NCBI GenBank assembly: GCA_003154195.1
Contig: PMCS01000029.1
Location: forward strand, 132,547-196,546
From: Candidatus Omnitrophota bacterium
GTDB taxonomy: Bacteria > Omnitrophota > Gorgyraeia > Duberdicusellales > 4484-171
Direction of reading: 5' to 3'
Length of the DNA: 64,000 nt
In this document: positions 3,972-32,602 of the stretch, one piece after another
Layout of the letters: each line of letters begins with the position of its first letter
How positions within the stretch are numbered: the first letter of the stretch is position 1
Notes under the pieces: generated by a model
The model's input: only the letters and a program-made list of their open reading frames with translations
Told to the model about the DNA's origin: nothing
Database searches by the model: none
Translations under genes and position numbers: made by a program

Positions 3972-4547
3972 TTACAGCCCTTCCTCATCCATCGGCCCAC
4001 GGCCTTCTCCGGAGCCGTTACTTTTTTGACGGTTCACCCCGCCATGCCCTTCTTTTCCTTGAAAACCACCAGAACGGCCCTGTTTATCCTGCTTACGGTT
4101 TTGCAGGTGCTCTTTCATCCTCGCCTGCATTTTAGCAAATTGTTCCGGCGTCAAAATCTCTTTTAAGGTTAAAATATGGTCTACTCTGGCATCAATAAGC
4201 TGTCCCTGAAGCGCCTTTAACTGAGCGACAACGGGTTCGATGGCCGCGCGCGTCGCGGAAGGATTTTGCAGCGCCGCTTTTAATTCCTGCCGTTTTTGCT
4301 TCACCGCTTCGCGAAGTTTTTGCATTTTCTCGCGGCGGCCCTGGCGGCCTTCCTGAAGTTTCTGGCGCTGCGCGTCCGTCAAATTAAGCTCGCTCGCCAG
4401 ACGGCCGGCCGGCCCCTTATCTTCGCCCTTTGCTTCTTCTTTGATTTGTCCTTTACCCGGCGCGGGGTTTCCCGCCCAAGCCAAGGCAGTAACCGTTAAC
4501 GCCATAAACACCAGAGCTGCTTTGATTATCTTGGTTTTATTATTCAT
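3972..4547 (-). CDS. periplasmic Spy/CpxP-family (LTxxQ motif) protein
   Basis: Signal peptide after internal Met (MNNKTKIIKAALVFMALTVTALA) with GGAGG RBS; LTDAQRQKL and LTPEQFAKM motifs; ORF-track N-terminal extension likely not translated. Confidence 0.6.
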   Translation of the reverse strand: MNNKTKIIKAALVFMALTVTALAWAGNPAPGKGQIKEEAKGEDKGPAGRLASELNLTDAQRQKLQEGRQGRREKMQKLREAVKQKRQELKAALQNPSATRAAIEPVVAQLKALQGQLIDARVDHILTLKEILTPEQFAKMQARMKEHLQNRKQDKQGRSGGFQGKEGHGGVNRQKSNGSGEGRGPMDEEGL

Positions 4548-5080: not shown

Positions 5081-5566
5081 TTATAAAAAATTATCCGCCG
5101 CCTCATTTTCCACAGTATCGGTCTCACCAAGACGGTCACTATCCAACGACGCGAGAAACTGCGCCGCTTCATAAATCGACTCGCCCACCTCATAATTCTG
5201 GCGGGTAATCCTTCTCTGGGAAAATACCGTCAAGCTGATCATCAAAGCAAAGGTAACGCCCGCGGCCACAAGCTTGGGTACCGTAAAAAAGCTTATTAGC
5301 CCTGAACAAAAATAATCAAATCTATCTTTCAGGCTGATTTTGCCCAGAGTTATTTCCTCTTTTATGTTATGCCATACCGCTTCCGGCGGCTCGAGTTCAG
5401 GCGCGTTCCGGAAAGGAAAACGCGCGGCCTGCTCCAGGTTCGCGAGAAAATCGCGGCAGGCATTACACCGGGATATATGTTCATCGATATTCTTGCGCCG
5501 GTCCGGGGAACACCGGCGGTCAAAATAATCACCCAGTAACCATTCTTGTATTTTTCTACACTCCAT
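5081..5566 (-). CDS. putative anti-sigma factor (zf-HC2-like Cys/His motif, C-terminal TM)
   Basis: CRKIQEW...HISRCNACRDF motif; start chosen at MECRK with GGAGG RBS 9 nt upstream; downstream of ECF sigma. Confidence 0.5.
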   Translation of the reverse strand: MECRKIQEWLLGDYFDRRCSPDRRKNIDEHISRCNACRDFLANLEQAARFPFRNAPELEPPEAVWHNIKEEITLGKISLKDRFDYFCSGLISFFTVPKLVAAGVTFALMISLTVFSQRRITRQNYEVGESIYEAAQFLASLDSDRLGETDTVENEAADNFL

Positions 5567-8943: not shown

Positions 8944-9837
8944 TTAATATAAAGTTCCGCTTTTATTTATTGTTTTCTTTTTTGGTTTTCGTTCTTCTGC
9001 CGGCTGGACCGAAGGCAACACGTTATCTTCTAAAATCGTGATTTCTTCCGGCATGCTTACAATTATCTCCGGCTTATCCTTATAATCCCTGACCCGCCCC
9101 GATACTTCTATCGCTTTACCGGTATAAAAATTTGCCGGGTTGATATTTTTCTTACAAAAAAATTGCCGGGCATCGTCAAAAATTACTACGGTAAAGGATT
9201 TTTTACGCTTTTTCCCGAAATTAAGTAAAATCACCTTCCCTGAATCGTAAGTTTTTTCGACCCTTCCGCGAACAGTACGAATCTGGTTGATGTATTCTTT
9301 GGCGTCGGAAGCATCGATTGCTTCATAATTACCCCACAGATTTTTTCTATTCTCCCGGGCTCTTGTCTGCGCCGCGATAAACACATCGGCATGTTTTACA
9401 TTGGGAGCTTTAATAAATAACGTGGCAAACCCCTCTTCCAGCATTTTAGCGTTGACCATCTCGCCGCCGGGTAAATAGCAATAACCCAATAACCGGTTAT
9501 ACTTATCATTTTTCTGAACATCAAATTCCACCCTGATAATTTTACCTTCGACTAACCGGCGGTTGAATTCCGTGGCTTCTTTGCCGAATGGCTGAAACGC
9601 TTCCCGCCACGTTCCATCGGGATTCTTTAGGTGAGTTTCCGGAGTGTCAATGCCTAAATAGCGCAAATATTTTCCGTTAGCCAGAACTATGGTATCGCCG
9701 TCGACAACACGGACAACGTTGACTTGATAATAGTCGGAAAAGTTTGCGTAATTGCGGCAGGCGCAGAAGAAACCGATCGCGGTTAAAATTACTAACTGCT
9801 TTATCGGATGAGATAAACGAAAAAAATACTTAGGCAT
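8944..9837 (-). CDS. staphylococcal (micrococcal) nuclease-like thermonuclease with C-terminal OB-like domain, secreted/lipoprotein
   Basis: VVDGDTI...GIDTPE SNase motif; N-terminal hydrophobic/Cys lipobox-like segment. Confidence 0.7.
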   Translation of the reverse strand: MPKYFFRLSHPIKQLVILTAIGFFCACRNYANFSDYYQVNVVRVVDGDTIVLANGKYLRYLGIDTPETHLKNPDGTWREAFQPFGKEATEFNRRLVEGKIIRVEFDVQKNDKYNRLLGYCYLPGGEMVNAKMLEEGFATLFIKAPNVKHADVFIAAQTRARENRKNLWGNYEAIDASDAKEYINQIRTVRGRVEKTYDSGKVILLNFGKKRKKSFTVVIFDDARQFFCKKNINPANFYTGKAIEVSGRVRDYKDKPEIIVSMPEEITILEDNVLPSVQPAEERKPKKKTINKSGTLY

Positions 9838-9909
9838 TGTTTATAACCTTAATCATTCCGGAGAATTTTCGAGAGTTTTGCTATCCTAATATCCCAACGC
9901 AGTTGTTGT

Positions 9910-10260
9910 TTAATTTACCGCTATTCCATATGTACGAATTTCATACGAAAAAGTACTGTAGGGGTCTGTTAAGCCTGCGGGTGAAAGCGGGATAGGTTCT
10001 ATATGCGAATCTATTTGCATAGCAAGCCGGCGTAAAAGCATCATTTCTTTTATAGCATCACGGCCAAATTGCCTCGAAATAATCGCTATGTCAATATCGC
10101 TGTCTTTGGCCGCATTACCTTTAGCGTGTGAACCAAACAAAATCATCTTTGACACACGAATACCTTGCTTACGCAACAATACGGCAAATTTACGTATAGT
10201 TGTTTTATCTTTTGTTTTTATAGATGTTTTTGAAGCCATACCAATAATCCTCCGGTACAT
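9910..10260 (-). CDS. nucleotidyltransferase (MNT-type) antitoxin-like protein
   Basis: LFGSHAKGNAAKDSDIDIAI minimal NTase motif; overlaps HEPN partner. Confidence 0.75.
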   Translation of the reverse strand: MYRRIIGMASKTSIKTKDKTTIRKFAVLLRKQGIRVSKMILFGSHAKGNAAKDSDIDIAIISRQFGRDAIKEMMLLRRLAMQIDSHIEPIPLSPAGLTDPYSTFSYEIRTYGIAVN

Positions 10261-10559
10261 TTAATATATTTTGCCGAAAATACTTTTGTGGCTTTCTTAG
10301 CAAATTGAAGTTTATAATCATCGTACCGCGCCGCAATATTAAACGTACTGATTTCGGATAGATCAGTCTTATTTTTATCGTCAAGAACAATACCCGCTTT
10401 TTCCGCCAACCGCACTAAATCGTGCACAAACGGCGGCGCGCTATTGGTCTTTTTAACGATAACCGCCTTAAGCATTTTCTCAATGCATAAGTGACAGAAA
10501 AATAATGCGTGACTATAATTACCGCCGCGGCAAAATCTTCTTGCGATGATGTGCGCCAA
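10218..10559 (-). CDS. HEPN domain protein (HEPN/MNT pair)
   Basis: AEKxLKAVI...PPFVHDL...ARYDDY pattern typical of HEPN (PF05168-like) proteins paired with MNT. Confidence 0.6.
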   Translation of the reverse strand: MAHIIARRFCRGGNYSHALFFCHLCIEKMLKAVIVKKTNSAPPFVHDLVRLAEKAGIVLDDKNKTDLSEISTFNIAARYDDYKLQFAKKATKVFSAKYIKCTGGLLVWLQKHL

Positions 10560-10589: not shown

Positions 10590-10880
10590 AAATTATAGTA
10601 TCATACCGGTTTCATCGGTCAAGATTTTTATCAAGGATTGACGTAAAAGTCTATAAAGATTATTAAATCTGTAAAGATCATAAAAATTGTAAAAACCACA
10701 TAAAACAAAAAAGCTTAATAAAATCAAAGATGCTTGATTTTATTAAGCTTTTTTGTTAAAAATGGCGGGGACGAAGGGACTCCATCCGTTAAATCAAAAT
10801 AAGCGTTGATTTCATTAGTTTATTTTACGTTTCATCGCTTTGGTGTGTAGTAAATTGGGTAGTAAAATCGATGTAATTTT
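10590..10880. repeat. ~230-bp direct repeat carrying a 17-nt copy of the tRNA-Asp 3' end (10763-10779) plus terminator hairpin; att-like boundary, copy 1
   Basis: Shares AAAAAGCCTAACAAAATCAAAAGATGCTTGATTTT(A/G)TTAGGCTT...AAAAATGGCGGGGACGAAGGGA and ~100 further nt with 13430-13660; left part also shared with the intact tRNA-Asp locus at 15590-15790. Confidence 0.8.
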
Positions 10881-10968
10881 TATTTAGCAGTTAGCAGTAA
10901 TTCTTCGATTTTATAGTATCGCGTACGCGGCGCGTTTTTGCAAGTTTCTTTGCCTACGTATCCTATAA

Positions 10969-11679
10969 TTATTGCTTTTCAAATATAAAATAGTTTTGAT
11001 AAGGCAGTAATGTCGAGTCTTCTTTTATTAATTTAAAGCCGGCCTTGCATACCAGCGATAACATTTCCTTGCCGCATATCTTTATATTTTCCGGCGGACC
11101 TTCCGGAAGCTTACCTTCTTTGAATTCGATGAGTATAAGCTTATCGCCTTTTTCCATTTCCAAATTTAATTTCGCAAGCCATTCGGCGCGTTTATTGACA
11201 TGGTGCAGTACATCACAGATAAATACTATATCCACATTTTTAGGTATTTTCGGATCTTCGTATGTAGCCAATACCGGTTCAATATTTTTAATCCCCGCAG
11301 ACATAGCTTTATGGTGGACATAACGCAGCATCTCCGGTTCCGTATCTATTACTATTACTTTCCCCTTAGGCAAGGCTCTTGAAAAACGGAAAGAAAAATA
11401 ACCCGAACCAGCGCCCAAGTCTACCAAAGTTTCGGAACCTTTTAAATTCAGTGAAGAAACTATCTCATTGGGCTTTTGCCAAACGTCTCTATCCTTTCTC
11501 TCCAAAAATTCAATGTATTTTTCTGTATCTTCGAACGGTTTCATGTTGTGTACATTGATTCCTTGTTTTCTTAGCGGGCATTCTATTGGAACTTTTATAT
11601 TCCCATTCCCGGAATAACCGCAACAAGCAGAGATAGCAAATAAGAAAACTGGCAAATATAGAACTTTTTTAATGTTCAC
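10969..11679 (-). CDS. class I SAM-dependent methyltransferase with N-terminal signal peptide/lipobox
   Basis: VDLGAGSGYFS motif I; MNIKKVLYLPVFLFAISACC leader; AT-rich islet. Confidence 0.65.
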   Translation of the reverse strand: MNIKKVLYLPVFLFAISACCGYSGNGNIKVPIECPLRKQGINVHNMKPFEDTEKYIEFLERKDRDVWQKPNEIVSSLNLKGSETLVDLGAGSGYFSFRFSRALPKGKVIVIDTEPEMLRYVHHKAMSAGIKNIEPVLATYEDPKIPKNVDIVFICDVLHHVNKRAEWLAKLNLEMEKGDKLILIEFKEGKLPEGPPENIKICGKEMLSLVCKAGFKLIKEDSTLLPYQNYFIFEKQ

Positions 11680-11722
11680 CTATACCTTTCTTTTTAGGTC
11701 TACGTTTGTGTATTATTAAGTT

Positions 11723-12121
11723 TTATATTTTAACTTCCGGATCTATATTCATTAAAAATTCGGCAGCCTTCTCAACACATCCTAAGCAAGACAGTTTCTT
11801 TAACCGCCTTATTTCCTCGCAAGTCAGGGCTCCGGCATGCCCGATAAAAAAAGCTTCGCATTCTTTACGTTTATATTTCCCGGTAAGCTCTAAAATATAC
11901 AAAGCAGAATAGAACGCACCGCAATAACCTCCCGGCGCCAAACCACCGCCACAATCAGCATGACTATCCAAATCTTTATGCGTAAAGTTACTTTTTTCAG
12001 AATAAGAACGCGACACTGATTCAGCGCAATTAAATTTTTCCCCGTTCTTTCCTAAAAAATAGTCTTTTGCTTTGTTTTTCATATTCTGCCGATTTAATGG
12101 CCGCACCCGTGTTGGGCACAA
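11723..12121 (-). CDS. Cys-rich putative redox protein (C_GCAxxG_C_C-like)
   Basis: CGGGLAPGGYCGAF...CLGCV cysteine pattern; family assignment tentative. Confidence 0.4.
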   Translation of the reverse strand: MCPTRVRPLNRQNMKNKAKDYFLGKNGEKFNCAESVSRSYSEKSNFTHKDLDSHADCGGGLAPGGYCGAFYSALYILELTGKYKRKECEAFFIGHAGALTCEEIRRLKKLSCLGCVEKAAEFLMNIDPEVKI

Positions 12122-12501
12122 GCATTTTGCATAGTTATCTCTTCAAGCCCGCCTTTGGTAAACTGGCTGACAATATCTGCAACTGTTCCCGGAATAGCCC
12201 GATAAATCTTAATCCCACCTTCGTTAAGCTTTTGAACTGCCCGAGCGCCCATCCCACCGGTAACCACGGCGTCAATTTTCTTACCCATTAACGCATTCAT
12301 TGGCTGGCACATACCGTGCTCATGATGCTGATTGGCATTATCAATGATTTCTACAGAGTCTTTCTCTGTATCGATAATTGTAAAATACGGCGCGCTGCCA
12401 AAATGTCCGTAGGCTAACGCTTTCATGCCTTCATTTGTTTCTGTTGGAATACATAATTTCATTTTATTGCTCCCTTCTTGGCTACGATAAGAGTTTGACA
12501 T
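12094..12501 (-). CDS. NifX/NifB-type dinitrogenase FeMo-cofactor-binding domain protein
   Basis: KIAIPTE-like start (KLCIPTETNEG), FGSAPYFTIID, AVVTGGMGARA motifs of PF02579; adjacent to DUF134 gene as commonly observed. Confidence 0.65.
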   Translation of the reverse strand: MSNSYRSQEGSNKMKLCIPTETNEGMKALAYGHFGSAPYFTIIDTEKDSVEIIDNANQHHEHGMCQPMNALMGKKIDAVVTGGMGARAVQKLNEGGIKIYRAIPGTVADIVSQFTKGGLEEITMQNACAQHGCGH

Positions 12502-13088
12502 ACATCCTTATAAACTTTAACAACCAATCCTGTTTTCTCTAAGTATTCCTTTACACCCAACAATGATAATTTAGACGCCTCATGCTTATGCCCATCTAAC
12601 GCATGCACCTTTTCCATAACTTTTTCGCCTTGTTTATTCAAATCGGCAATAATAAGTTTGTTTTTAGCCACCCTAATCATTTCCTTTAAACATTTAACCG
12701 GATTCTTAGCGTGATGGATAAAATTTACTGAAATCACATAATCAAAAGAGTTATCTTTGTATTTCAACCTCTCGGCATTCATAATCTTAAGCAATACAAA
12801 TTTATCGAGCTTAAGGCTTTTAAGTTTTAGCTTGGCTGCATTTTGAGCTTTTCTATCCAGATCTATAGAGACTAGCTTAAATCCATTTTTTGCCAAAACA
12901 ACCGCCATGTGGCCCCGACCCGTACCAACCTCTAACATCTTCCCCTCTGAAATTTTTGCTTTTTTAAGAATGAATTCTCTGGCTTTAGGGATATCATAAC
13001 CATGTCTCTTAAATAACTTCAGTCTATCTTGATCTTGTTTTATCAAATTATTCACCTTAACCAACCTTTTTAACAGTTCCGCCTTCAA
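12459..13088 (-). CDS. class I SAM-dependent methyltransferase
   Basis: LEVGTGRGHMAVVLA motif I; 209 aa. Confidence 0.65.
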   Translation of the reverse strand: MKAELLKRLVKVNNLIKQDQDRLKLFKRHGYDIPKAREFILKKAKISEGKMLEVGTGRGHMAVVLAKNGFKLVSIDLDRKAQNAAKLKLKSLKLDKFVLLKIMNAERLKYKDNSFDYVISVNFIHHAKNPVKCLKEMIRVAKNKLIIADLNKQGEKVMEKVHALDGHKHEASKLSLLGVKEYLEKTGLVVKVYKDVCQTLIVAKKGAIK

Positions 13089-13353
13089 TCTTTAATGCTT
13101 TAGTGTTTAAAAGAACGTCTGCTACTTTTCTATGGGCTGAATTTATAATATTACCGAACGTCTGTCGGGAAATATCCATTTTCTTAGCTGCATCCACCTG
13201 ATACAAACCTTCTAAGTCCGCAAGCCTCACTGCCTCCAATTCATCCAAGGTAAGATTAATCTCTTCCAGCACATCCAAAGGTATACCGCGAGGCTTGAAA
13301 TAATTTGCATCGGGATTACACCTTATTCTTCTACACCTACAAGGCCTAGACAT
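13057..13353 (-). CDS. DUF134 (UPF0251) predicted DNA-binding protein
   Basis: RPCRCRRI...YFKPRGIPL N-terminal signature and C-terminal HTH-like region. Confidence 0.65.
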   Translation of the reverse strand: MSRPCRCRRIRCNPDANYFKPRGIPLDVLEEINLTLDELEAVRLADLEGLYQVDAAKKMDISRQTFGNIINSAHRKVADVLLNTKALKIEGGTVKKVG

Positions 13354-13429
13354 ATACCTTCCTTTTAGTTATTGGCATATGCTAATAATACCACCTTAGC
13401 ATCATTCGTCAAGCTGAAAAGGTTTATAT

Positions 13430-13660
13430 AAAATTATAAAAATCCTGAAAATTGTAAAGATTATAAATCTAGTGAAAACCCCATAAAAACAAAAAAGCCT
13501 AACAAAATCAAAAGATGCTTGATTTTGTTAGGCTTCTTGCTTAAAAATGGCGGGGACGAAGGGAATCCATCCGTTAAATCGAAATAAGTGTTGATTTTAT
13601 TAGCTTATTTTATCTTTTTTCACTTTGGTGTGTAGTAATTTGGGTAGTAAAATTGATGAA
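13430..13660. repeat. ~230-bp direct repeat with tRNA-Asp 3'-end fragment (13548-13564); att-like boundary, copy 2
   Basis: See 10590-10880. Confidence 0.8.
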
Positions 13661-13721
13661 AATTTTTGGAGTTTTATTGCTATTGCGGTATCCGAAAAAA
13701 ATATTAATTGGAAAGGACGGG

Positions 13722-14330
13722 CTATCTCCAGCGTTCCGGACGGACAAATTGCTGATTGTCTATTTTTACAACATCGGGGAATTGACAACTGGCGAGATGC
13801 TTCTCTTTAAGTTTTATATGAAAGTCGGCAACTTGCTTTAATTCTTCCGCGCGCCTTCCGATAGGAATTACTATTCCAGTTTTTTTGGCCGGAAAAGTTT
13901 CCCTAACCGCTTTGATAGCGGGAATTAAATCACTATCGCCGGAAATAATTACCGCCGTATCCCAAATATCCATAACAGCGGTCTTAAAAAGTGATATGGC
14001 TATATTTACATCGGTTTGCTTTTCTTCAAAAGTTTGATACTTCTTTCGGCAATTTCGGCAAGTTTTATCTACACGCCTGAATGCTCCCAGCACCACGTCA
14101 ACTCCCGCCGATTCCAATATCCTTACATATTCACGATGGCGTTCCATTTTTGCAGCATCCCATGTGGCATATGTAGTAAAATAAGTTGTTTTAACAAGCT
14201 TATCATTGGGTGGGATTAATAATTCGGCGAGCCTTTTAAGATTGAGCCATTTATATTTGTGATATCTCGGCTCATCATTTAGAGAATGATAGAGATTAAA
14301 TCCGTCGACAAAAAAAGCTAGTCTGCCCAT
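13722..14330 (-). CDS. NYN (LabA-like) domain protein
   Basis: FVDGFNLYH...ISGDSDLIPA motifs typical of NYN/LabA nuclease fold. Confidence 0.65.
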   Translation of the reverse strand: MGRLAFFVDGFNLYHSLNDEPRYHKYKWLNLKRLAELLIPPNDKLVKTTYFTTYATWDAAKMERHREYVRILESAGVDVVLGAFRRVDKTCRNCRKKYQTFEEKQTDVNIAISLFKTAVMDIWDTAVIISGDSDLIPAIKAVRETFPAKKTGIVIPIGRRAEELKQVADFHIKLKEKHLASCQFPDVVKIDNQQFVRPERWR

Positions 14331-14559
14331 ATTATACCTATATAAAAAGTAAAAAACCCGAACTCACGAGAAGTTCGGGGCCAACGGGATATTATCCCAT
14401 TGGGATGATGGTTTTATTTTACATCTGGAAAGGCGATTGTCAATACCCTCGATCAATTTATACCATATAGCTTGTAAAATTGCCAACTCGTGGAAAAATT
14501 GCCCCCTTTTATACCAAGGCATAAAATTGTATGCCTTGGAATAAGAAGTATCAAGATCT

Positions 14560-15369
14560 TTATCCTTTTGGCTCTTTATTTTCTTCTTTATTACTTGACG
14601 CTATCGGTATACCTGATGACGGCATACCCACCATAATGGTATTGCCCGATGTTCCTCCAATTGTTTGAAGAATACGAAGCTGCATGAGAGCCGGATTGTC
14701 TTTTACTAAACTGGCGGCATTAGCCAAGTTTCTTAAAGCCGCTGCTTCGCCTCTGGCTTTTTCTAAAATAGCTAGCCCTTCTTTTCGCGCCTTCACTACT
14801 TGCGCGAACACATTTTTAAGTTCTCCGGGAAACATAATATCTTTAATGTCTGCGGCAATCAGCTTTACGCCTAATGCTGCAATTCGTTCTTTGGTTGATT
14901 CAGTCAGCCGCTTACCAAATTCGGAACGTTTTTCCATAAGCTCGTCGATAGCCGCTGAACCAATGATTTCCCGCGCGGCTAACTGCAGTATCAAATAAAC
15001 CGCTTCCTGGTAATTTTCAGTTTTGTTTATGGCTACAACGGGGTCGGTAATCTCATATTGAGCGGCAATGCTTATTTTTAAGGTAACGCCGTCCGAACTC
15101 AATATCTCTTGCCCTGGTACCGTCACAACTTTAGGACGTATGTCGACTTTCTGGATAACGGTATACATACGTAAAAACCAATGACAACCGGCATCAAGAA
15201 TTTTTACCAGTTTACCTTTCTGATACAACAGTCCCTTTTCATATTCAAAAACAATAGTTTTGCCGACAATTTTAAAAAAAACAATTAAAACAGCAATAAT
15301 TCCTAAGAGATAAAAAAACCACATATCGACCTCCTTTGTTTTTAAAAGGTTCTGCCTTAAAAAACCCAT
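14560..15369 (-). CDS. SPFH/band-7 (stomatin/slipin-like) membrane protein
   Basis: N-terminal TM then band-7 core (PGQEILSSDGVTLKISIAAQYEI...) and coiled-coil tail. Confidence 0.8.
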   Translation of the reverse strand: MGFLRQNLLKTKEVDMWFFYLLGIIAVLIVFFKIVGKTIVFEYEKGLLYQKGKLVKILDAGCHWFLRMYTVIQKVDIRPKVVTVPGQEILSSDGVTLKISIAAQYEITDPVVAINKTENYQEAVYLILQLAAREIIGSAAIDELMEKRSEFGKRLTESTKERIAALGVKLIAADIKDIMFPGELKNVFAQVVKARKEGLAILEKARGEAAALRNLANAASLVKDNPALMQLRILQTIGGTSGNTIMVGMPSSGIPIASSNKEENKEPKG

Positions 15370-15707
15370 ACTATAACAGCGGAGGTTTTATCCTACATAG
15401 CTGTTACCGCGTTGCCACTTAAAGCCGGGCCTTTTAAGACAGAACGTAGGGAATTGAACCCCTGGTTATCGCCAGGTGGAAGTGCAACTGCAAAACCGTC
15501 GGGAGATTCCAGACGATTGCCGGCATCTTCCAATTATTATTATCCCACGAACATCTGAAAATACAAGAATGCTGCAAGTTCTTTGTGACGTAAAATTATA
15601 CAAACCTTAAAGATTATAAAAGCTGTAAAAATCCTAAAAACCATAAAAACCAAAAAAGCCTAACAAAATCAAAAGATGCTTGATTTTATTAGGCTTTTTG
15701 TTAAAAA

Positions 15708-15786
15708 TGGCGGGGACGAAGGGATTTGAACCCTCGGTCACATGCGTGACAGGCATGGGTCTTGAACCGGGCTAGACGACGTCCCC
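15708..15786 (-). tRNA. tRNA-Asp (anticodon GTC), CCA encoded
   Basis: Cloverleaf readable by eye; anticodon loop CTGTCAC; its 3' 17 nt are duplicated at 10763-10779 and 13548-13564. Confidence 0.75.
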
Positions 15787-16049
15787 ATTTTTTCCTGCGG
15801 CTTTGCCGCAGGAAAAAATCTGTCAATCCGTCTTACGACGGATTGAAATAAAATTATAGCTTCAAATATTGTTTAGTCAACTTATCTTGTAAATTAATAA
15901 AGAACAACGTAATATTTATTTTTATGTTTTTCTGCTTCTAAAATCTATTTCGAAATGGCGGAAGGCATTTTCTCCGCAACTTGAAAAATGCGTAACCGTA
16001 TTTTTCAAGTTGCTATATTTTTTTTCGCTCTTAATAGAGCGAAAAAAAA

Positions 16050-16423: not shown

Positions 16424-16806
16424 AATTTTAATTTTTACTTCGTAAAAATTAAAATTGCCGCCCCCTTTTTACTGAACAAGTTCAGTAAAAAGGGGGAAAT
16501 GCATATAAAAGTGAGTAATTTTTCAATTTGTTAAACGATCGACAAGACTTTAAATATTTGCCGATTGTTATCTATTTTGGTTTTTGTTTCTTCTCTTTTC
16601 CCATCCACGAAGTGGATACCACTTTTTATTTCTGCCTATAGGCAGAAATAAAAAGGCGACGAGCGGATTTTTGAGCACCTTAATACATTATATAGCGAAA
16701 TCCCGCCGAGTATTTCAAAAATATCGAAGAGATTTTTGAAATGTTTACGAGACGGGAGAACCGCTCTCCCCCACCTTCCCGGATTCCCTATCCAAATTAC
16801 CAAACG

Positions 16807-16878
16807 AGGCGACGAGCGGATTTGAACCGCTGGATAGCGGTTTTGCAGACCGCTGCCTTACCACTTGGCTACGTCGCC
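16807..16878 (-). tRNA. tRNA-Cys (anticodon GCA)
   Basis: Anticodon loop CTGCAAA; 3' 17 nt duplicated at 16654-16670. Confidence 0.7.
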
Positions 16879-20255: not shown

Positions 20256-21023
20256 TTAATTAAGCTTAATCGGTTCTTTTAAAATCTCCTGCGCAAGGTT
20301 TAGATATGCTTTAGCGCCCACGCAATATTGGTCATAAAAATGTATAGGCTGGCCAAAGCTCGGCGCTTCCGCGAGCCGGATATTACGCGGGACAATACTG
20401 TTAAAAGCTTTCTCTTTAAAAAATCCGCGCACTTCCTCTATTACCTGAAGACTCAGGCGGGTTCGGAAATCAGCCATCGTCAGCAAGATTCCTTCAATCT
20501 CCAGATCCGGATTAAAACGCTGACGCACCAACTCTATGGTGTTGACTAATTTGGCAACGCCTTCCAGGGCATAATATTCGCACTGAACCGGAATTACCAG
20601 ACTATCGCAAGCGCACAGGACATTCACAGTCAATAAACCCAGGGACGGCGGCGCGTCAATAATCAGGTAAGAAAAGTTATCTTTTATTTTATCAAGTTCT
20701 CTTTTTAATTGCAACTCTCTATTTTCCACATTAACCAATTCGATTTCCGAACCAGTCAACGCAACCGTGGAAGGCATAAGGGAAAAATGCGGCCACTGGG
20801 TAGGATAAATACTTTCCTGTAGCGTCTTGGTGCCGGCAATCACATCGTAAATAGAATTCTTATCCGTATTGTCAAACCCCACCCCGCTAGTCGCATTGCC
20901 TTGCGGGTCCATATCGATAAGAAGTACTTCTTTACCGCTTAAGGCAAGGTAAGAAGCAATATTAATCGCGGTAGTAGTTTTACCAGTACCCCCTTTTTGG
21001 TTACAAACACCGATAATTTTACC
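20256..21023 (-). CDS. parA: chromosome partitioning ATPase ParA/Soj
   Basis: Deviant Walker A KGGTGKTT; start set at MGKIIGV. Confidence 0.85.
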   Translation of the reverse strand, partial: GKIIGVCNQKGGTGKTTTAINIASYLALSGKEVLLIDMDPQGNATSGVGFDNTDKNSIYDVIAGTKTLQESIYPTQWPHFSLMPSTVALTGSEIELVNVENRELQLKRELDKIKDNFSYLIIDAPPSLGLLTVNVLCACDSLVIPVQCEYYALEGVAKLVNTIELVRQRFNPDLEIEGILLTMADFRTRLSLQVIEEVRGFFKEKAFNSIVPRNIRLAEAPSFGQPIHFYDQYCVGAKAYLNLAQEILKEPIKLN

Positions 21024-21115
21024 CATAACGCAAATCACCAGAAATACTGTCATTAATTCATAACTCATTGTGCCGCAATGAGTTATGAATATTTTAATCC
21101 TCTTCTCTATCCCCT

Positions 21116-21131
21116 GTTTTCACGTGAAAAC
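21116..21131. promoter_or_regulatory. parS-like 16-bp perfect palindrome GTTTTCACGTGAAAAC (copy 1)
   Basis: Resembles canonical parS TGTTNCACGTGAAACA around a CACGTG core; 4 copies between parA and yidC. Confidence 0.55.
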
Positions 21132-21283
21132 GGCTGGCTGGTTAGATTACCTTTCGCACAATCCCACGCACCAATAACCAAACTTTGGGGAAAATAGTTC
21201 ATCCCTTGCATAGTTGGAACAGATTACCGGTTCATTTAATTCTAAACGTAACAAGGCAATGGTTAACCAAATAACTCTGCCCC

Positions 21284-21299
21284 GTTTTCACGTGAAAAC
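21284..21299. promoter_or_regulatory. parS-like palindrome (copy 2)
   Basis: Identical 16-mer. Confidence 0.55.
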
Positions 21300-21356
21300 G
21301 TAATTATAGTTTAATACTTAATTTAGTTTTTGCAAGAAATTTCTGCGCCCTGACCA

Positions 21357-21372
21357 GTTTTCACGTGAAAAC
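21357..21372. promoter_or_regulatory. parS-like palindrome (copy 3)
   Basis: Identical 16-mer. Confidence 0.55.
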
Positions 21373-21526
21373 GGAAGCGGTTCCGCGTACGTCAGGTAAA
21401 TATTTTTCGCACGTTTCAAATAGTGGAAAACCTGTGAAAATTGTGATTTCATGCAAATCGGCAACCTGCAGGTGTGGTTTTCTGGTGCATGAATAAACGG
21501 GAAAAATACATTTCCCGGGTTACCGC

Positions 21527-21542
21527 GTTTTCACGTGAAAAC
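21527..21542. promoter_or_regulatory. parS-like palindrome (copy 4), abutting yidC stop
   Basis: Identical 16-mer. Confidence 0.55.
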
Positions 21543-21543
21543 G

Positions 21544-22980
21544 CTATTTTGACCTGGCAAGATGAATTTGATAGAGGAGAGTCAAAAAATTCTGAATAAA
21601 CCAGTAAAGGGCTAAACTGGAAGGAAAATTATAGAAAATAACCCCGATAAAAACCGAAAAAAACAGCCCCATTCGTCTTTGGTCAACAGAAACCGCAGGG
21701 GAAACGGTAAATCTTTGTTGCACTAAACCCACACCCATTATTAAAAGCGGTATGATATTGATATAATCCACAGGGGGTGGAAACCCGAGCTTGATTGCGT
21801 GATCGGGAAGAGTTAAATCTTTAATCCACAAAAACTTAGCGCCTTTTAACTCGGTAAGACTTAAAAAAACCTGATAAAGCGCAAAAAACAAAGGAAACTG
21901 CAAAAAAACCGGCAAACATCCGCCGATTGGATTTACTCGGTATGTTTTATAAAGTTCCAATATTTCACTATTTAATTTTTGGGGATTATCTTTATACTTC
22001 ACTTTCAATTCTTCAATATGCGGCTGAATTGCTTGCATTTTTTTCATCGCCCGAGTGCTTATATTCGTAAGCGGAAACAGGATGATAAAAATTAAAATTG
22101 CTAAAATTATTATGCCTAACCCCCAACTTTTGGTAAGGTCATGACAAAAAGAGAATAGTTTGACAATAATAACACCAATACCATGAAAAAAACCATAATG
22201 TATAACACTTTGTAAACCAAAGGGTTGCAACGATTTTTGTAGTTGAGGGCCCACATACAAAGTCACTTCGGGCAGAGGAGAAACAAGGAGCAATGAAACA
22301 TTATTTTTGTTATCTTTGGCCCACTGAATATCATATTCGCCTTTAATTAAAGAGGCGCAAAAATATTGGGTCCGGCTGCCGGCAAAATCAACTTTTTCTA
22401 CCAACTTATCTTTTACTTTAGGCAGCGGCATCCGTTCCATCAGCAGGTTTTGAGAATAATAAATTCCTTGATACCTGTGCTGTAACTGGTTGGCGCTCAA
22501 AATGTTATGAAATAAAACCATCGAAGAAAATGGTGAAACCTTGATGGTAATTAAGTTTCCCTCAAAAATAAACTCTTTGCGGATATTATCGGCAGTAAAA
22601 ATAAGACGGTTTTGGTTAATGTTTACGGAAAATTTCTTATCCCGGTCAGCCGGAGTAAAACCGATATCTTTGATCAATAAGTCATCTGTGGGATAAGAAT
22701 TTAATTTTACAAAACTTACGTAACCACCGATGGCAGAATAAGTTATGGTGAAATTGTCCAATTTAAGTTCAGGTAAAGATGCAGTAACTTCTTGAGGAAC
22801 ATTAACGCCGGAAGCAGGAGCGGTAGAGGATTGAACAGCTTGTTGTGGCGTAACAGGTTGCTTTGATTGCTCACCTAACGGGACAGTATTTTTAGGAAAA
22901 TATTTAGCCCCGATATAGGAATAAACAGTTAAAAAAAGAAAACTCACTACAATTGCGGCAATAAATCGTTTGGTATCCAT
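21544..22980 (-). CDS. yidC: membrane protein insertase YidC
   Basis: N-terminal TM, periplasmic domain, C-terminal 5-TM Oxa1 core (MKKMQAIQPHIEELKVKYKDNPQKLN...). Confidence 0.85.
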   Translation of the reverse strand: MDTKRFIAAIVVSFLFLTVYSYIGAKYFPKNTVPLGEQSKQPVTPQQAVQSSTAPASGVNVPQEVTASLPELKLDNFTITYSAIGGYVSFVKLNSYPTDDLLIKDIGFTPADRDKKFSVNINQNRLIFTADNIRKEFIFEGNLITIKVSPFSSMVLFHNILSANQLQHRYQGIYYSQNLLMERMPLPKVKDKLVEKVDFAGSRTQYFCASLIKGEYDIQWAKDNKNNVSLLLVSPLPEVTLYVGPQLQKSLQPFGLQSVIHYGFFHGIGVIIVKLFSFCHDLTKSWGLGIIILAILIFIILFPLTNISTRAMKKMQAIQPHIEELKVKYKDNPQKLNSEILELYKTYRVNPIGGCLPVFLQFPLFFALYQVFLSLTELKGAKFLWIKDLTLPDHAIKLGFPPPVDYINIIPLLIMGVGLVQQRFTVSPAVSVDQRRMGLFFSVFIGVIFYNFPSSLALYWFIQNFLTLLYQIHLARSK

Positions 22981-23106
22981 TTTGAATTAGAAAAATCTGT
23001 TGATCGGTTGTCAGTTTTTATGATTACCGATTGTGGTCGATCGTCGACCTACCTTTAATATGCGGCCATTTGCCCTTAAGCGGTACCCGATGAGCTTAAC
23101 ATACTT

Positions 23107-23313
23107 TCAATGTACCGGGTCGTGCCCGCCATAATTTCGCGGGTTACAGCGTCCAATGCGGCAGATGGTCAATCTAGCCGCTTTTAAAAAAGAGTGCCGC
23201 TTAAAAGATTCTTCGGCGTACTCGGAGCAGCTGGGATAATATATACAACGCGACGGAAACAAGACGGAAATCCGGCGGTAAAGGGAAATTAAAAAAATGA
23301 TAATCCCGTTCAT
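23107..23313 (-). CDS. yidD: membrane protein insertion efficiency factor YidD
   Basis: 68 aa; YYPSCSEYA...RC.P...GGHDPV motif; start ATG overlaps rpmH stop (ATGA). Confidence 0.8.
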
Positions 23314-23447
23314 ACCGTTAGTTTCTTTCTGCCCTTTTTCCGGCGCCTTGCCAAAACTTTTCTGCCGGAAGCATTATCCATCCGCGCGCGAAAGCCATGC
23401 CGCCTCTTACCTTTTAATTTAGTGGGGGTATGAAGATTTTTTTTCAT
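23310..23447 (-). CDS. rpmH: 50S ribosomal protein L34
   Basis: Not in ORF track; hand translation [45 protein letters not shown]. Confidence 0.85.
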
Positions 23448-23653
23448 AGGCAAAAGATTTTAACATAAATTAGTTTTGTGTCAACATACAAAAAATACAA
23501 AAAATAATTGCAAAGAAGAATTATTGAAGTATAATAAGGGTTACATATTTTTTAGAAAAGCCGGTAATAACTTGAAAGTATCGGAATTCCTGTTGTTCCA
23601 ACCATCCTTTAATCTGGTTGTGAATAAACTGTCTAAATTGTGAATAGACTTTT
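23448..23653. promoter_or_regulatory. AT-rich rpmH-dnaA intergenic region, candidate oriC/dnaA promoter with DnaA-box-like sites
   Basis: TGTGAATAA at 23619-23627 (1 mismatch to TGTGGATAA) and TGTGAATAG at 23639-23647; low GC. Confidence 0.35.
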
Positions 23654-24985
23654 ATGGAAAACTTGTGGGAAAATTGCAAACAAGCATTGCGTAAAAACAT
23701 CGGCGATATATCCGTGGATACCTGGATTGCGCCGTTGCATCCTAAAAAAATCGACGGCGCCGGCATTATTTTAGAAGCCCCCGACGGCTTTTTTAAAAAT
23801 TGGGTGGAATCGAACTACCTTGATCAGATAAAACAATCGTTTAAAGATTTATTCCAAAAAGATGTTGAGGTAACTTTTGAAGTCAATACCACCCTTCTCA
23901 AAAGCAGGACAAATAAAGTTTTAAAAGATATCAATAAAACATTTCAGCCTGCTTCGCCGGACTCGTTTCGCTTGAATCCGCGTTTCACGCTGGATAATTT
24001 TGTGGTCGGCGCCTCCAACCGGATGGCTCACGCCGCTTCTGTAGCAATTACCGACGCTCCGGGGAAAGCCTATAATCCGTTATTTATTTATGGCCGGGTG
24101 GGGCTGGGTAAAACGCATTTAATGCAAGCTATCGCTCACGCCATGTTTTTAAAAAATTCTCAAAGCCGGGTTAAATATACCTCTTCGGAAAAATTTACCA
24201 ATGAGTTGATTATGGCGATTCAAAACCGGACTACGGATAAATTCCGCCAGAAATATCGGGAAATCGACCTTCTTTTAATTGATGATATTCACTTTCTCGC
24301 CGGAAAGGAAACGGCGCAGGAAGAATTCTTTAATACTTTTAACGTCCTTTATGATTACCATAAACAGATTGTTATGTCCAGCGACCGGCCGCCTAAAGAA
24401 ATCCCGAAGTTGGAGGAGAGGCTGGTTTCGCGTTTTGGCTGGGGGCTAGTGGTAGACATCCAACCACCGGATTTTGAAACCAGAGTGGCGATTCTTTATA
24501 AAAAATTAGAGAAAGACCCGGTGAAAATAGATGAAGAGGTGATTTATTTTATCGCCAAGAATATCAGCACTAATATTAGAGAACTCGAGGGGGCGCTGAT
24601 AAGGATTATCGCCTATTCTTTGATTGAGGATAAACCAGTTACTTTGGAGTTGGCAAAAGACATTTTAAAAGATATGGTGAAAGAAATATACCGGCGGATT
24701 ACTCCGGAAATTATCCTGGAAAGGGTGGGGGGATATTTCAATACGCAGATCAACGACTTAAAAAGGGGTAAACGTAATAAAAATCTAGTTATTCCGCGTC
24801 AGGTCGCGATGTATTTAATAAGAGAGCTTACGGAATTATCCCTTCCTGAAATCGGCATGTTTTTTGGCGCAAAACATCATACAACAATTCTCTATGCTCA
24901 CAAAAAGATTAAAGAAGAGCTGAATAAAAACGAAAAACTAAAATTAATTATCCACACCATTACACAGGAGATTAAGGGTTTATAA
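23654..24985 (+). CDS. dnaA: chromosomal replication initiator DnaA
   Basis: AAA+ Walker A GRVGLGKTHL, box VII, C-terminal DNA-binding HTH. Confidence 0.95.
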   Translation: MENLWENCKQALRKNIGDISVDTWIAPLHPKKIDGAGIILEAPDGFFKNWVESNYLDQIKQSFKDLFQKDVEVTFEVNTTLLKSRTNKVLKDINKTFQPASPDSFRLNPRFTLDNFVVGASNRMAHAASVAITDAPGKAYNPLFIYGRVGLGKTHLMQAIAHAMFLKNSQSRVKYTSSEKFTNELIMAIQNRTTDKFRQKYREIDLLLIDDIHFLAGKETAQEEFFNTFNVLYDYHKQIVMSSDRPPKEIPKLEERLVSRFGWGLVVDIQPPDFETRVAILYKKLEKDPVKIDEEVIYFIAKNISTNIRELEGALIRIIAYSLIEDKPVTLELAKDILKDMVKEIYRRITPEIILERVGGYFNTQINDLKRGKRNKNLVIPRQVAMYLIRELTELSLPEIGMFFGAKHHTTILYAHKKIKEELNKNEKLKLIIHTITQEIKGL

Positions 24986-31638: not shown

Positions 31639-31712
31639 GTCCCCATCGTCTAGCCTGGTTTAGGACATCGCCCTTTCACGGCGACGGCGCCAGTTCAAAT
31701 CTGGCTGGGGAC
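31639..31712 (+). tRNA. tRNA-Glu (anticodon TTC)
   Basis: GTCCCCATCGTCTAGCC...anticodon loop CTTTCAC...GGGGACG; 3' 17 nt duplicated at 31815-31831; flanked by twin AT-rich hairpins. Confidence 0.75.
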
Positions 31713-31888
31713 GCTTTTTTTGGAAAAGTAGTTCTTCAGCCCAAGCGAGGCCAGTTCTCTCGCCTGCACTTCGTTCGGCGGGATTTCGCTGGATAGCGGC
31801 ATTACGGTGCTCAAAAATCTGGCTGGGGACGTTTTATTTTTTACTGCGTAAAAAATAAAACCTTTCCGCTTCGCGGGTGCAAAAACTA

Positions 31889-32602
31889 ATGAAAATTAAC
31901 CTCAGTTTCGATAAATACCTCCAATTATTCAGTAATCTTAACGTTCATGAACGATACGGGCTTATTCTGGCCGCGATACTGGTTTTAGCGGTTTTTCTGC
32001 GGATTTATCAAAGGAGAAGAAACCGAAAGGGCAAAGAAGCTGTTTCGGCCGGGCCGGACACTGAGTCACCATGCAAAACAAAGAAATTTTTCTGGCTGAA
32101 ACTGGGGCGAAAAGAAAAAACGGGAAAATTATTACCAGAAGGAGAAAACGCTCCGGCATCAAGGCCAAAACGGTTGTTGGGCGCGACGATTCTCGGCTGT
32201 GTTAATCTTTTTGTTTTTGGCCTCATCCCCTGCGGCGGCCTTATTTTTGTTTATTTTAAAACGGATTCAGAATTAGCCTCGATGCTGCAGACGATGCTGC
32301 TTGATACTTTAAATCTGGAGCTTACGGAAGTTCAATTTAAACAGGCGGTATTAACGCAGGCGATGCTGTCCCTTCCTTTTGTGCTTTCCGGGATCGGCCT
32401 CCTTTCAGGGAAAGAATGGGCAAGAAAATTTACCGTCATCTGTGCTTTTATAATCGCGCTTTTGATCGCCGCTTCCATTTTTTTCAATCCCGCACTGATT
32501 AAAGAAGGTATTTTACAGATAATTTATCCGGGAATCCTTATCTTCTATCTTACCAATAAAAATGTGACGGAATATTTTAAACAAATTATTTCGCGAAAAT
32601 AA
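31889..32602 (+). CDS. hypothetical membrane protein
   Basis: Several predicted TM helices; no recognisable domain. Confidence 0.35.
   Translation: MKINLSFDKYLQLFSNLNVHERYGLILAAILVLAVFLRIYQRRRNRKGKEAVSAGPDTESPCKTKKFFWLKLGRKEKTGKLLPEGENAPASRPKRLLGATILGCVNLFVFGLIPCGGLIFVYFKTDSELASMLQTMLLDTLNLELTEVQFKQAVLTQAMLSLPFVLSGIGLLSGKEWARKFTVICAFIIALLIAASIFFNPALIKEGILQIIYPGILIFYLTNKNVTEYFKQIISRK

Follow-up and report, generated by a model that had tools for sequence, protein, structure and literature searches.

Two tandem islets without a detected recombinase gene, bounded by copies of the tRNA-Asp 3′ end, in an uncultured Omnitrophota bacterium

Two small gene islets (2.1 and 2.8 kb) lie in tandem behind a tRNA-Asp gene of an uncultured Candidatus Omnitrophota bacterium from Stordalen Mire, and each is bounded by copies of the 3′ end of that tRNA. 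We analysed them within a stretch of 64,000 nucleotides (GenBank assembly GCA_003154195.1, contig PMCS01000029.1, positions 132,547 to 196,546), here called the window, to which coordinates given without a locus name refer. We consider it probable, at roughly 0.6, that these are two related cargo-only integrative islets, decayed or trans-mobilised remnants or satellites resembling cis-mobilizable elements (CIMEs), that were inserted successively at the 3′ end of tRNA-Asp. A first-pass annotation of the same DNA had seen here the attL/attR signature of site-specific integration into a tRNA, twice in tandem. The architecture fits this signature in its exact cores, its boundary in the T-loop and its shared upstream arm, whereas mobility is something we infer from that architecture. 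Tandem integrase-less islets at tRNA genes are a known kind of scar, of which this is a new instance.

Results

Copies of the tRNA-Asp 3′ end bound both islets

The intact tRNA-Asp(GTC) gene was located at 15708..15786 (ARAGORN; Rfam tRNA model, 60 bits), at the end of a Cys-Leu-Val-Asp tRNA cluster that lies behind ndk-yicC-gmk-rpoZ. This gene, the repeat segments, the cargo genes with their control regions and the gene pair flanking the array are all on the minus strand. The last 17 nt of the tRNA, from T-loop nucleotide 60 (the final T-loop base) to CCA, form an att-like core (15708-15724; minus strand, TCCCTTCGTCCCCGCCA). Exactly three copies of this 17-mer were found in the 64 kb, at 10763-10779, 13548-13564 and 15708-15724, where chance would predict none. 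Together with the next 7 nt (TTTTTAA), identity was 24/24 in every pair of copies, and the two distal 24-nt cores match exactly at 13541..13564 (copy 2) and 10756..10779 (copy 1). Read along the minus strand, the layout is tRNA-core-D3-(slipin, NYN)-U2-core-D2-(DUF134 operon)-U1-core-D1-HEPN/MNT, in which D denotes the segment downstream of each core and U the ~105-nt arm lying 5′ of each core that does not belong to the tRNA.

Three parts come after each core copy: a terminator-like hairpin (20-bp stem, T-run), about seven T-tract units phased at 9 nt, and a sigma-70-like promoter. D3 (15588..15707) consists of TTTTTAA, a terminator hairpin at 15653-15699 and seven phased units at 15588-15650. 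D2 (13385..13540) has its hairpin at 13492-13538, its T-tracts at 13430-13490 and a promoter for the DUF134 operon (TTGACG-16-TATTAT, 13385-13412), and D1 (10595..10755) has the same parts at 10707-10754, 10634-10700 and 10595-10622, the last being a promoter for the HEPN/MNT genes (TTGACC-16-TACTAT). Identity among the copies falls with distance from the core, from 100% in the core to 82-92% in the hairpin and ~66% in the T-tracts, and reaches background level by the downstream promoter. D2 and D3 are 92-95% identical (92% in the hairpin block), and either is 82-90% identical to D1. Pairing in the hairpin is kept despite these changes: two stem positions that are C-G in copy 2 are T-A in copy 1, and copy 3 contains one G-U wobble, which pairs solely as RNA of the transcribed strand. 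The recurrence of the tRNA 3′ end with its terminator hairpin at 10763 and 13548, as first annotated, is therefore borne out by exact 17-mer matches and by hairpins 82-92% identical. A precise alignment of the three copies, which that annotation had proposed for finding the att core, delimits 24 exact nucleotides, beyond which the D segments have diverged.

On the other side of the core, the boundary of identity is sharp. It falls at the last T-loop base, where the U sequence stands in place of the tRNA body. U2 (13565..13670) adjoins core copy 2; it has TTACTAC twice, as direct repeats, and a degenerate version of the terminator hairpin. U1 (10780..10885) adjoins core copy 1. BLAST aligns the two arms at 88% identity over 93 nt; across all 106 nt their identity is 83%, and their core-adjoining ends read …GGATGGAT in U2 and …GGATGGAG in U1. 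The ~230-bp repeat of the first-pass annotation thus holds for copies 1 and 2, whereas in copy 3 the common part is the core and the downstream segment only. No alignment of the U arm to the tRNA body was obtained, and the arm was not found elsewhere in the window or in 151 loci of other organisms. The idea that U is a decayed tRNA or a structured RNA was rejected on the missing tRNA alignment and on folding z-scores of -1.2 and -0.9.

Successive integration would account for the array

The favoured explanation supposes that each element carried an attP of the form U-core-D, with a core of 17-24 nt that repeats the tRNA 3′ end exactly. The arms, U and D, would carry short repeats, TTACTAC twice in U and the seven 9-nt-phased T-tracts in D. 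Recombination within the core would join the chromosomal 5′ part to an element-borne 3′ part and so restore an intact tRNA; the tRNA would receive a new, element-borne terminator, and U-core would be left at the far end of the element. A second element would then enter one of the resulting core copies (accretion). D2 and D3 would be element-borne and D1 the original chromosomal sequence downstream of the tRNA, with which the closer similarity of D2 and D3 to each other than to D1 agrees. Each D would have kept a working hairpin because an inserting element must supply the terminator of the tRNA. What we infer from the anatomy described above is the recombination event, the structure of attP and the part played by the arm repeats. 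Also in favour of this explanation are the mobility of the NYN family, the similar array behind tRNA-Gln in L071 and the further scars at tRNA-Cys and tRNA-Val (all described below), as are published cases of tandem accretion and of remnants lacking an integrase at tRNA or tmRNA genes (PMC5704250; PMC3146451; bioRxiv 10.1101/2020.12.28.424599).

The contrast between the exact core and its surroundings (8-18% divergence in the hairpin block, ~34% in the T-tracts) suggests that the core is the actual site of exchange or is otherwise constrained. The recombinase would be gone from the islets, either deleted or always acting in trans. The array now looks fixed, with each D serving as terminator for the upstream block and providing an A/T-rich region and the -35 element of the next promoter.

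Recombinase search, population and relatives

Several results weigh against this explanation, and we gather them here. No Pfam recombinase family was detected among 27 ORFs of the window (7 in the islets, 3 flanking and 17 further; some ORFs of at least 150 aa fell outside the scan). The earlier conclusion that islets without an integrase are decayed or trans-mobilised is a fair reading of this result; the precomputed annotation of 6.9-27 kb likewise lists no recombinase, and no integrative and conjugative element (ICE) or integrative and mobilizable element (IME) was found in the 64 kb. The shared repeat also reaches ~60-130 nt past the tRNA (~60 nt of it at 82-92% identity), further than the stretch of identity at an att site typically does. 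The likeness of the D copies is mosaic: close to the core D3 is like D2, whereas at the far end it has TTTTACGTCA in common with D1. This mosaic points to homologous exchange, and gene conversion or homologous recombination between D copies has probably occurred.

The population gave no sign of movement either. Exact-protein look-ups of RpoZ, HEPN and DUF134 covered 14-23 contigs each from many samples; the three-core layout was identical in all contigs spanning the region, with DNA ~99.9-100% identical, and no alternative or variant junction, excision or islet absence was seen in the assembled contigs spanning the locus. Junctions of the deletion type would be recognised by TTTTTAAGCAAGAAGCC (tRNA body, core and D2) and TTTTTAACAAAAAAGCTT (tRNA body, core and D1), and a circular or tandem-type junction by TTTTTAACAAAAAGCCT (U2, core and D3). 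A scan of metagenome contigs for the junction gave 0 matches, an uninformative result because it also missed L005, L007 and L008, which are Joint Genome Institute (JGI) contigs that contain it. Among viral contigs, neither the U arm nor the U-core junction had a match, and U-core-D had none in phage and plasmid records searched in distant mode. The 17-nt core alone matched one 4-kb viral terminase fragment that has neither a tRNA nor an integrase, which is uninformative. Several short contigs stop at the repeats, as expected of repeat-induced assembly breaks. Two apparent variants were rejected: the loss of D3 in the metagenome-assembled contig L010 (about 4424-4426) is an 'NN' scaffold gap, and the loss of NYN in L002 (about 13500) is a run of Ns across that gene. 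These gaps look like a terminator deletion and a gene loss, but they are artefacts of assembly brought about by the repeats.

An empty site in related genomes had been suggested as a check. No close sister species was found in genome scans or in a 5.8-billion-protein collection (Gmk matches at 100%, then at <=64%), and this also belongs among the points against; there is no true empty-site comparison because the lineage is so isolated. Two relatives whose Gmk is 54-59% identical, L012 and L013, keep NDK-YicC-Gmk-RpoZ followed by tRNA Cys-Leu-Val-Asp. Gene order breaks at tRNA-Asp: downstream of it, neither relative has any islet or flank gene, except for a 27%-identical SPFH paralogue 2.2 kb away in L013, and neither has a core repeat after tRNA-Asp. 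The differing genes agree weakly with a variable spot; the evidence is weak because the relatives stand at family-level evolutionary distance, too far to decide the matter.

Base composition gives modest support. The region has a GC content of 0.381 compared with 0.436 for the window and is among the lowest 4% of 5.2-kb windows; GC at third codon positions (GC3) is 0.35-0.42 in the seven islet genes and 0.48 +/- 0.07 in other genes. The islets are thus poorer in GC than their surroundings, as the label 'AT-rich' had it, but the difference is modest and the core genes dnaN, yidC and rpoZ are as low in GC3. The direction of the compositional contrast speaks mildly for the integrative explanation; its weakness is one of the points against.

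Cargo genes of the islets

All seven cargo gene calls of the first-pass annotation were confirmed by Pfam. Islet 1 holds an operon of five overlapping genes (10969..13353), namely a DUF134 helix-turn-helix protein (13057-13353), an S-adenosylmethionine (SAM) methyltransferase (12459-13088), a NifX-like Nitro_FeMo-Co protein (12094-12501), a C_GCAxxG_C_C protein (11723-12121) and a lipoprotein-type SAM methyltransferase (10969-11679). Judged from these families, the operon may be a small module for cofactor, redox or methylation functions that the DUF134 protein regulates. In islet 2, the first cargo gene encodes an SPFH/Band-7 protein of the slipin family (14560..15369; Pfam Band_7, E = 1.8e-31) and the second a 202-aa NYN-domain protein (13722..14330; Pfam NYN, E = 1.5e-14; PADLOC HEC-09).

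The array is flanked by a HEPN/MNT (nucleotidyltransferase) toxin-antitoxin pair at 9910..10559 (Pfam; PADLOC PDC-S09), whose GC3 of 0.33-0.40 is as low as that of the islets. An SNase-OB fold protein in the 8944-10559 region matches PADLOC C3a212, and its gene is also low in GC3. Because these genes share the low GC3 of the islets, accessory DNA may continue beyond copy 1 as far as about 8.9 kb, with no additional core copy there. The cargo looks accessory or defence-like and can be described as a mosaic of separately transferable modules: the slipin gene with its leader RNA, the NYN/HEC-09 gene with an attenuator-like leader, and the DUF134-regulated operon.

The NYN gene belongs to a mobile family and has a structured leader

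A database label exists for the NYN protein: it matches the PADLOC candidate HEC-09 at full length (E = 6e-59, residues 1-202 of 203). Residues D9, D107, D124, D132 and D134 were invariant in 24 homologues. The ~203-aa family is found at 55-68% identity across Omnitrophota, Planctomycetota, Nitrospinota and Elusimicrobiota, and more distant relatives (~36% identity) are on 371 plasmids; by this distribution the family is clearly mobile. The gene stood alone in about 80 loci, often adjoining toxin-antitoxin modules, and was not embedded in Hma or another defence system either here or in those loci.

The pairing of NYN with SPFH, for which the annotation saw no established joint function, proved accidental, because the slipin and NYN homologues (5 and ~80) occur singly in unrelated contexts and have a promoter and a structured leader of their own. 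We rejected a conserved pair: the NYN loci whose gene tables were read contain no SPFH neighbour, and the partner was absent from 5/5 slipin loci.

The control region of the NYN gene (14351..14443) comprises a promoter (TTGACA-16-TAAAAT, 14416-14443) and a 60-nt leader of two hairpins ending in an intrinsic terminator (14351-14410). Nearly all of 73 distinct upstream regions of NYN genes show the same arrangement, a promoter and then an RNA of ~60 nt, in which an invariant CAUCCC, a variable hairpin, GGCCCC and a terminator hairpin with a U-run follow one another and end 15-25 nt before the start codon. Examples lie at 5938-5990 in L065, 5919-5980 in L068 and 5912-5975 in L071, with about 70 others. 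In an alignment of 35 sequences, 14/16 predicted pairs had compensatory changes. The leader was considered and rejected for the 3.5-kb plasmids of E. coli, which have only a plain terminator upstream. Rfam 15 gave no match at E <= 1 for this leader or for that of the slipin gene. The NYN leader may act as an attenuator or be a target through which the RNase regulates itself. A candidate defence gene carried as a compact cassette behind so strongly covarying a leader could offer a handle on RNase control.

Of 43 loci with sufficient flanking sequence, 5 have direct repeats of an adjacent gene's end set closely on either side of the ~0.8-kb NYN cassette. The repeat is 35 nt, exact and starts from the ATG of the downstream gene in L081 (5819-6648) and L092 (1225-2051). 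It is 23 nt, exact and inside the 5′ end of an mnmA-like gene in L076 (2342-3246), where the preceding codons have diverged, and it comprises 93 nt of a gene's 3′ end in L151 (5678-6743). In L071 (5714-7617) it is a tRNA-Gln-like 33-mer that recurs at the end of the next toxin-antitoxin cassette. There the NYN gene lies behind tRNA-Gln, and it and the next toxin-antitoxin module both end in the same arm plus tRNA-Gln-like core; this is the architecture of the tRNA-Asp islets at another tRNA. No integrase was found inside the repeat-bracketed units, and the target differs from genome to genome; something is moving these cassettes. Same-strand tRNAs are about four times denser in the 1.5 kb upstream of NYN genes than in the rest of these loci (7 vs 1.8 expected). 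In L081, a repeat of the D/anticodon part of tRNA-Ala (GGGAGAGCGCCTCGTTCG) directly follows that tRNA at 5140-5245, ~0.8 kb upstream of the NYN cassette.

A conserved leader RNA precedes slipin genes

Homologues of the slipin gene are 51-62% identical to it and stand alone in unrelated contexts. Upstream of the gene lie a promoter-like site (15533-15561) and a structured leader RNA of ~190 nt, which together span 15372..15561. The leader is conserved within the ~200-300 nt upstream of five homologues from different contexts (L153, L155, L177, L178 and L179). RNAalifold predicted 58 pairs from the six leaders, 35 of them with compensatory changes, and the motifs GCAGG…CCUCCGC and GGUUyUGCGUGUrGCC were invariant. 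The predicted RNA is riboswitch-sized. No repeats or tRNAs flank the slipin modules elsewhere. That slipin-family SPFH genes of several lineages share a ~190-nt leader without an Rfam match is a lead worth following; the two leader RNAs without Rfam matches and the repeats around the NYN cassettes are the leads most worth following from this work.

Other tRNA-end scars

An exact 17-nt copy of the tRNA-Cys 3′ end lies at 16654..16670 (minus strand), 153 nt downstream of the tRNA-Cys gene (16806-16878); this 17-mer has 2 matches against 0.02 expected. A perfect palindromic terminator of 17 bp (16622-16655) comes after the copy, which is free of cargo and makes a third such scar within this tRNA cluster. 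In L012, the family-level Omnitrophota relative introduced above, a duplication with a 126-nt period (11380-11419 and 11506-11545) consists of the last 18 nt of tRNA-Val and 13 nt downstream, 31 nt exact in all. Because such scars occur also at tRNA-Cys in the window and at tRNA-Val in L012, they are recurrent in this lineage.

Alternative explanations

The alternative that survives best, although we regard it as unlikely, is that the islets arose, with no dedicated integrase, by RecA-dependent (Campbell type) insertion of circular DNA or by unequal sister exchange through ~85-170 bp of homology in the tRNA-Asp 3′ end and terminator, so that the repeats are substrates of homologous recombination and not att sites. 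The length and mosaic structure of the shared segment (24 nt exact, ~60 nt at 82-92% and ~65 nt at ~66%) are what this explanation would expect, and no integrase was found in the scanned ORFs. NYN cassettes elsewhere, flanked by 23-93-nt repeats with a different target in each genome, are likewise hard to attribute to one sequence-specific integrase. On the other hand, the left boundary is sharp and falls in the T-loop, where the ssrA islands of Dehalococcoides are also inferred to insert (PMC3146451), and the 24-nt core is perfect while its neighbours have diverged. Although their cargo is unrelated, the islets have the same 105-nt U arm, which suggests a dedicated attP-like module. The D1 hairpin, at 8-18% divergence, would be a poor RecA substrate, and under the integrative model it is where the difference between element and chromosome should peak.

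A second possibility, which we hold to be doubtful and a shade less probable, is that the islets are not decayed elements at all but belong to a class of integrase-less, self-expressing mini-cassettes (0.8-3 kb) with their own promoter and often their own structured leader. A trans-acting recombinase would insert and stack such cassettes at the ends of tRNA and other genes, an integron-like economy with gene-end att sites. Pointers in this direction are the NYN cassettes with 23-93-nt repeats of the target end, the tRNA-Gln array of L071, and the cargo-free scars of ~130-150 nt at tRNA-Cys and at tRNA-Val of L012.

Less probable again is that the region is native: its genes would be long-standing residents of the chromosome, and the module of tRNA end, terminator and promoter would have been duplicated locally by slippage or unequal crossing-over, with no foreign element involved. 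The array is indeed fixed and identical in every spanning contig, each D serves as a terminator with the promoter of the following operon behind it, the difference in composition is slight and extends to some core genes, and a distant SPFH gene lies 2.2 kb behind tRNA-Asp in L013. Local duplication nevertheless leaves U unexplained, since both distal copies have this arm, which takes the place of the tRNA body precisely from the T-loop. In the relatives the islet genes do not follow tRNA-Asp, the SPFH protein of L013 being just 27% identical; homologues of NYN and slipin are dispersed over different phyla, at 51-68% identity and in unrelated contexts, and L071 has the same architecture at a different tRNA.

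Integron attC sites have an R″/L″-L′/R′ structure with RYYYAAC...GTTRRRY, extrahelical bases and a length of roughly 55-140 nt. An integron-like array, that is, a cluster of attC sites lacking integron integrases (CALIN), with the hairpins as attC sites for an integron integrase encoded elsewhere, is very improbable: the copy 2 hairpin (GCCTAAC...GTTAGGC) fits the R″/R′ consensus, the cassettes all have one orientation, toxin-antitoxin arrays are typical of chromosomal integrons and L068 has repeats containing GTTAGAT around NYN and BrnT cassettes, but that consensus fails in copy 1 (GCTTAAT/ATTAAGC) and in copy 3 (ATTAGGC), the stems form perfect 20-24-bp palindromes of ~47 nt without extrahelical bases and followed by a T-run, like intrinsic terminators, no IntI was found in the window, and the units have their own promoters, one of them holding five genes. 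We therefore rejected the hairpins as attC sites, both heptamers fitting in copy 2 only.

Position of the locus and other features of the window

The locus lies a few kb from dnaA-dnaN-gyrB, near the minimum of cumulative GC skew. This minimum, at about 21000-23700, falls between yidC and dnaA, with parAB, dnaN and gyrB nearby; because of this placement, the islets are estimated to lie about 6-11 kb from the probable replication origin. Elsewhere in the window, a tRNA-Glu is followed by a 241-aa ORF without a Pfam match (31639-32602), and an ORF of 2474 aa lies at 52195-59619.

Comparison with known systems

The value of the tandem islets is mainly documentary, as an example of this scar-forming mechanism at work on the tRNA cluster near the origin in a lineage of uncultured Omnitrophota. 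For one cargo gene and for the array as a whole, comparisons with described systems can be drawn.

HEC-09, a candidate RNase of the NYN/MARF1-like type, was defined as a gene lying inside Hma systems, and it did not protect against the phages used in the tests (bioRxiv 10.1101/2024.01.29.577857). The NYN protein of islet 2 matches the HEC-09 model end to end (E = 6e-59), but its gene stands alone behind its own structured leader and is not embedded in Hma.

With integrons and CALINs, the array shares small integrase-less units in one orientation, a structured recurring repeat and the kind of toxin-antitoxin or defence cargo that is common there. It differs in that the recurring site is a tRNA 3′ end with a terminator and not attC, in that the units have their own promoters, and in the lack of IntI in the window.

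Tycheposons and their remnants in the islands of Prochlorococcus resemble it in successive tRNA integrations parted by partial tRNA copies, in degenerate remnants, in extra partial tRNAs and in adaptive or defence-related cargo (bioRxiv 10.1101/2020.12.28.424599). They are, however, defined by integrase and replication modules (bioRxiv 10.1101/2020.12.28.424599), none of which was found here, and the present case is from another phylum, with no presence/absence variation seen in the population.

The ssrA islands of Dehalococcoides have a conserved 15-bp motif upstream of each 20-bp repeat; their insertion site was placed in the T-loop, and some of the islands are without integration genes (PMC3146451). 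The likeness lies in tandem islands behind one small-RNA gene, in repeats of ~20 bp from its 3′ end and in an upstream motif analogous to U. T-loop insertion is inferred in both cases, and those islands that have no integration module may be fixed (PMC3146451). By contrast, most Dehalococcoides islands keep a serine-recombinase module and strain variation proves their mobility, neither of which was seen at tRNA-Asp (PMC3146451).

Accretion of CIMEs and IMEs at tRNA genes has been described in streptococcal ICE/IME systems (PMC5704250). The islets differ from these in that no ICE/IME partner or integrase was seen in the 64 kb, in their Omnitrophota host, in their small size (2.1 and 2.8 kb) and in a repeat that also covers the terminator and T-tracts beyond the tRNA. 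They are like CIMEs in being elements bounded by attL/attR-type junctions that include the tRNA 3′ end, without genes for integration or transfer and in tandem at one site (PMC5704250). Of the features of a CIME, both types of junction are present here, and the islets have no recombinase or transfer genes.

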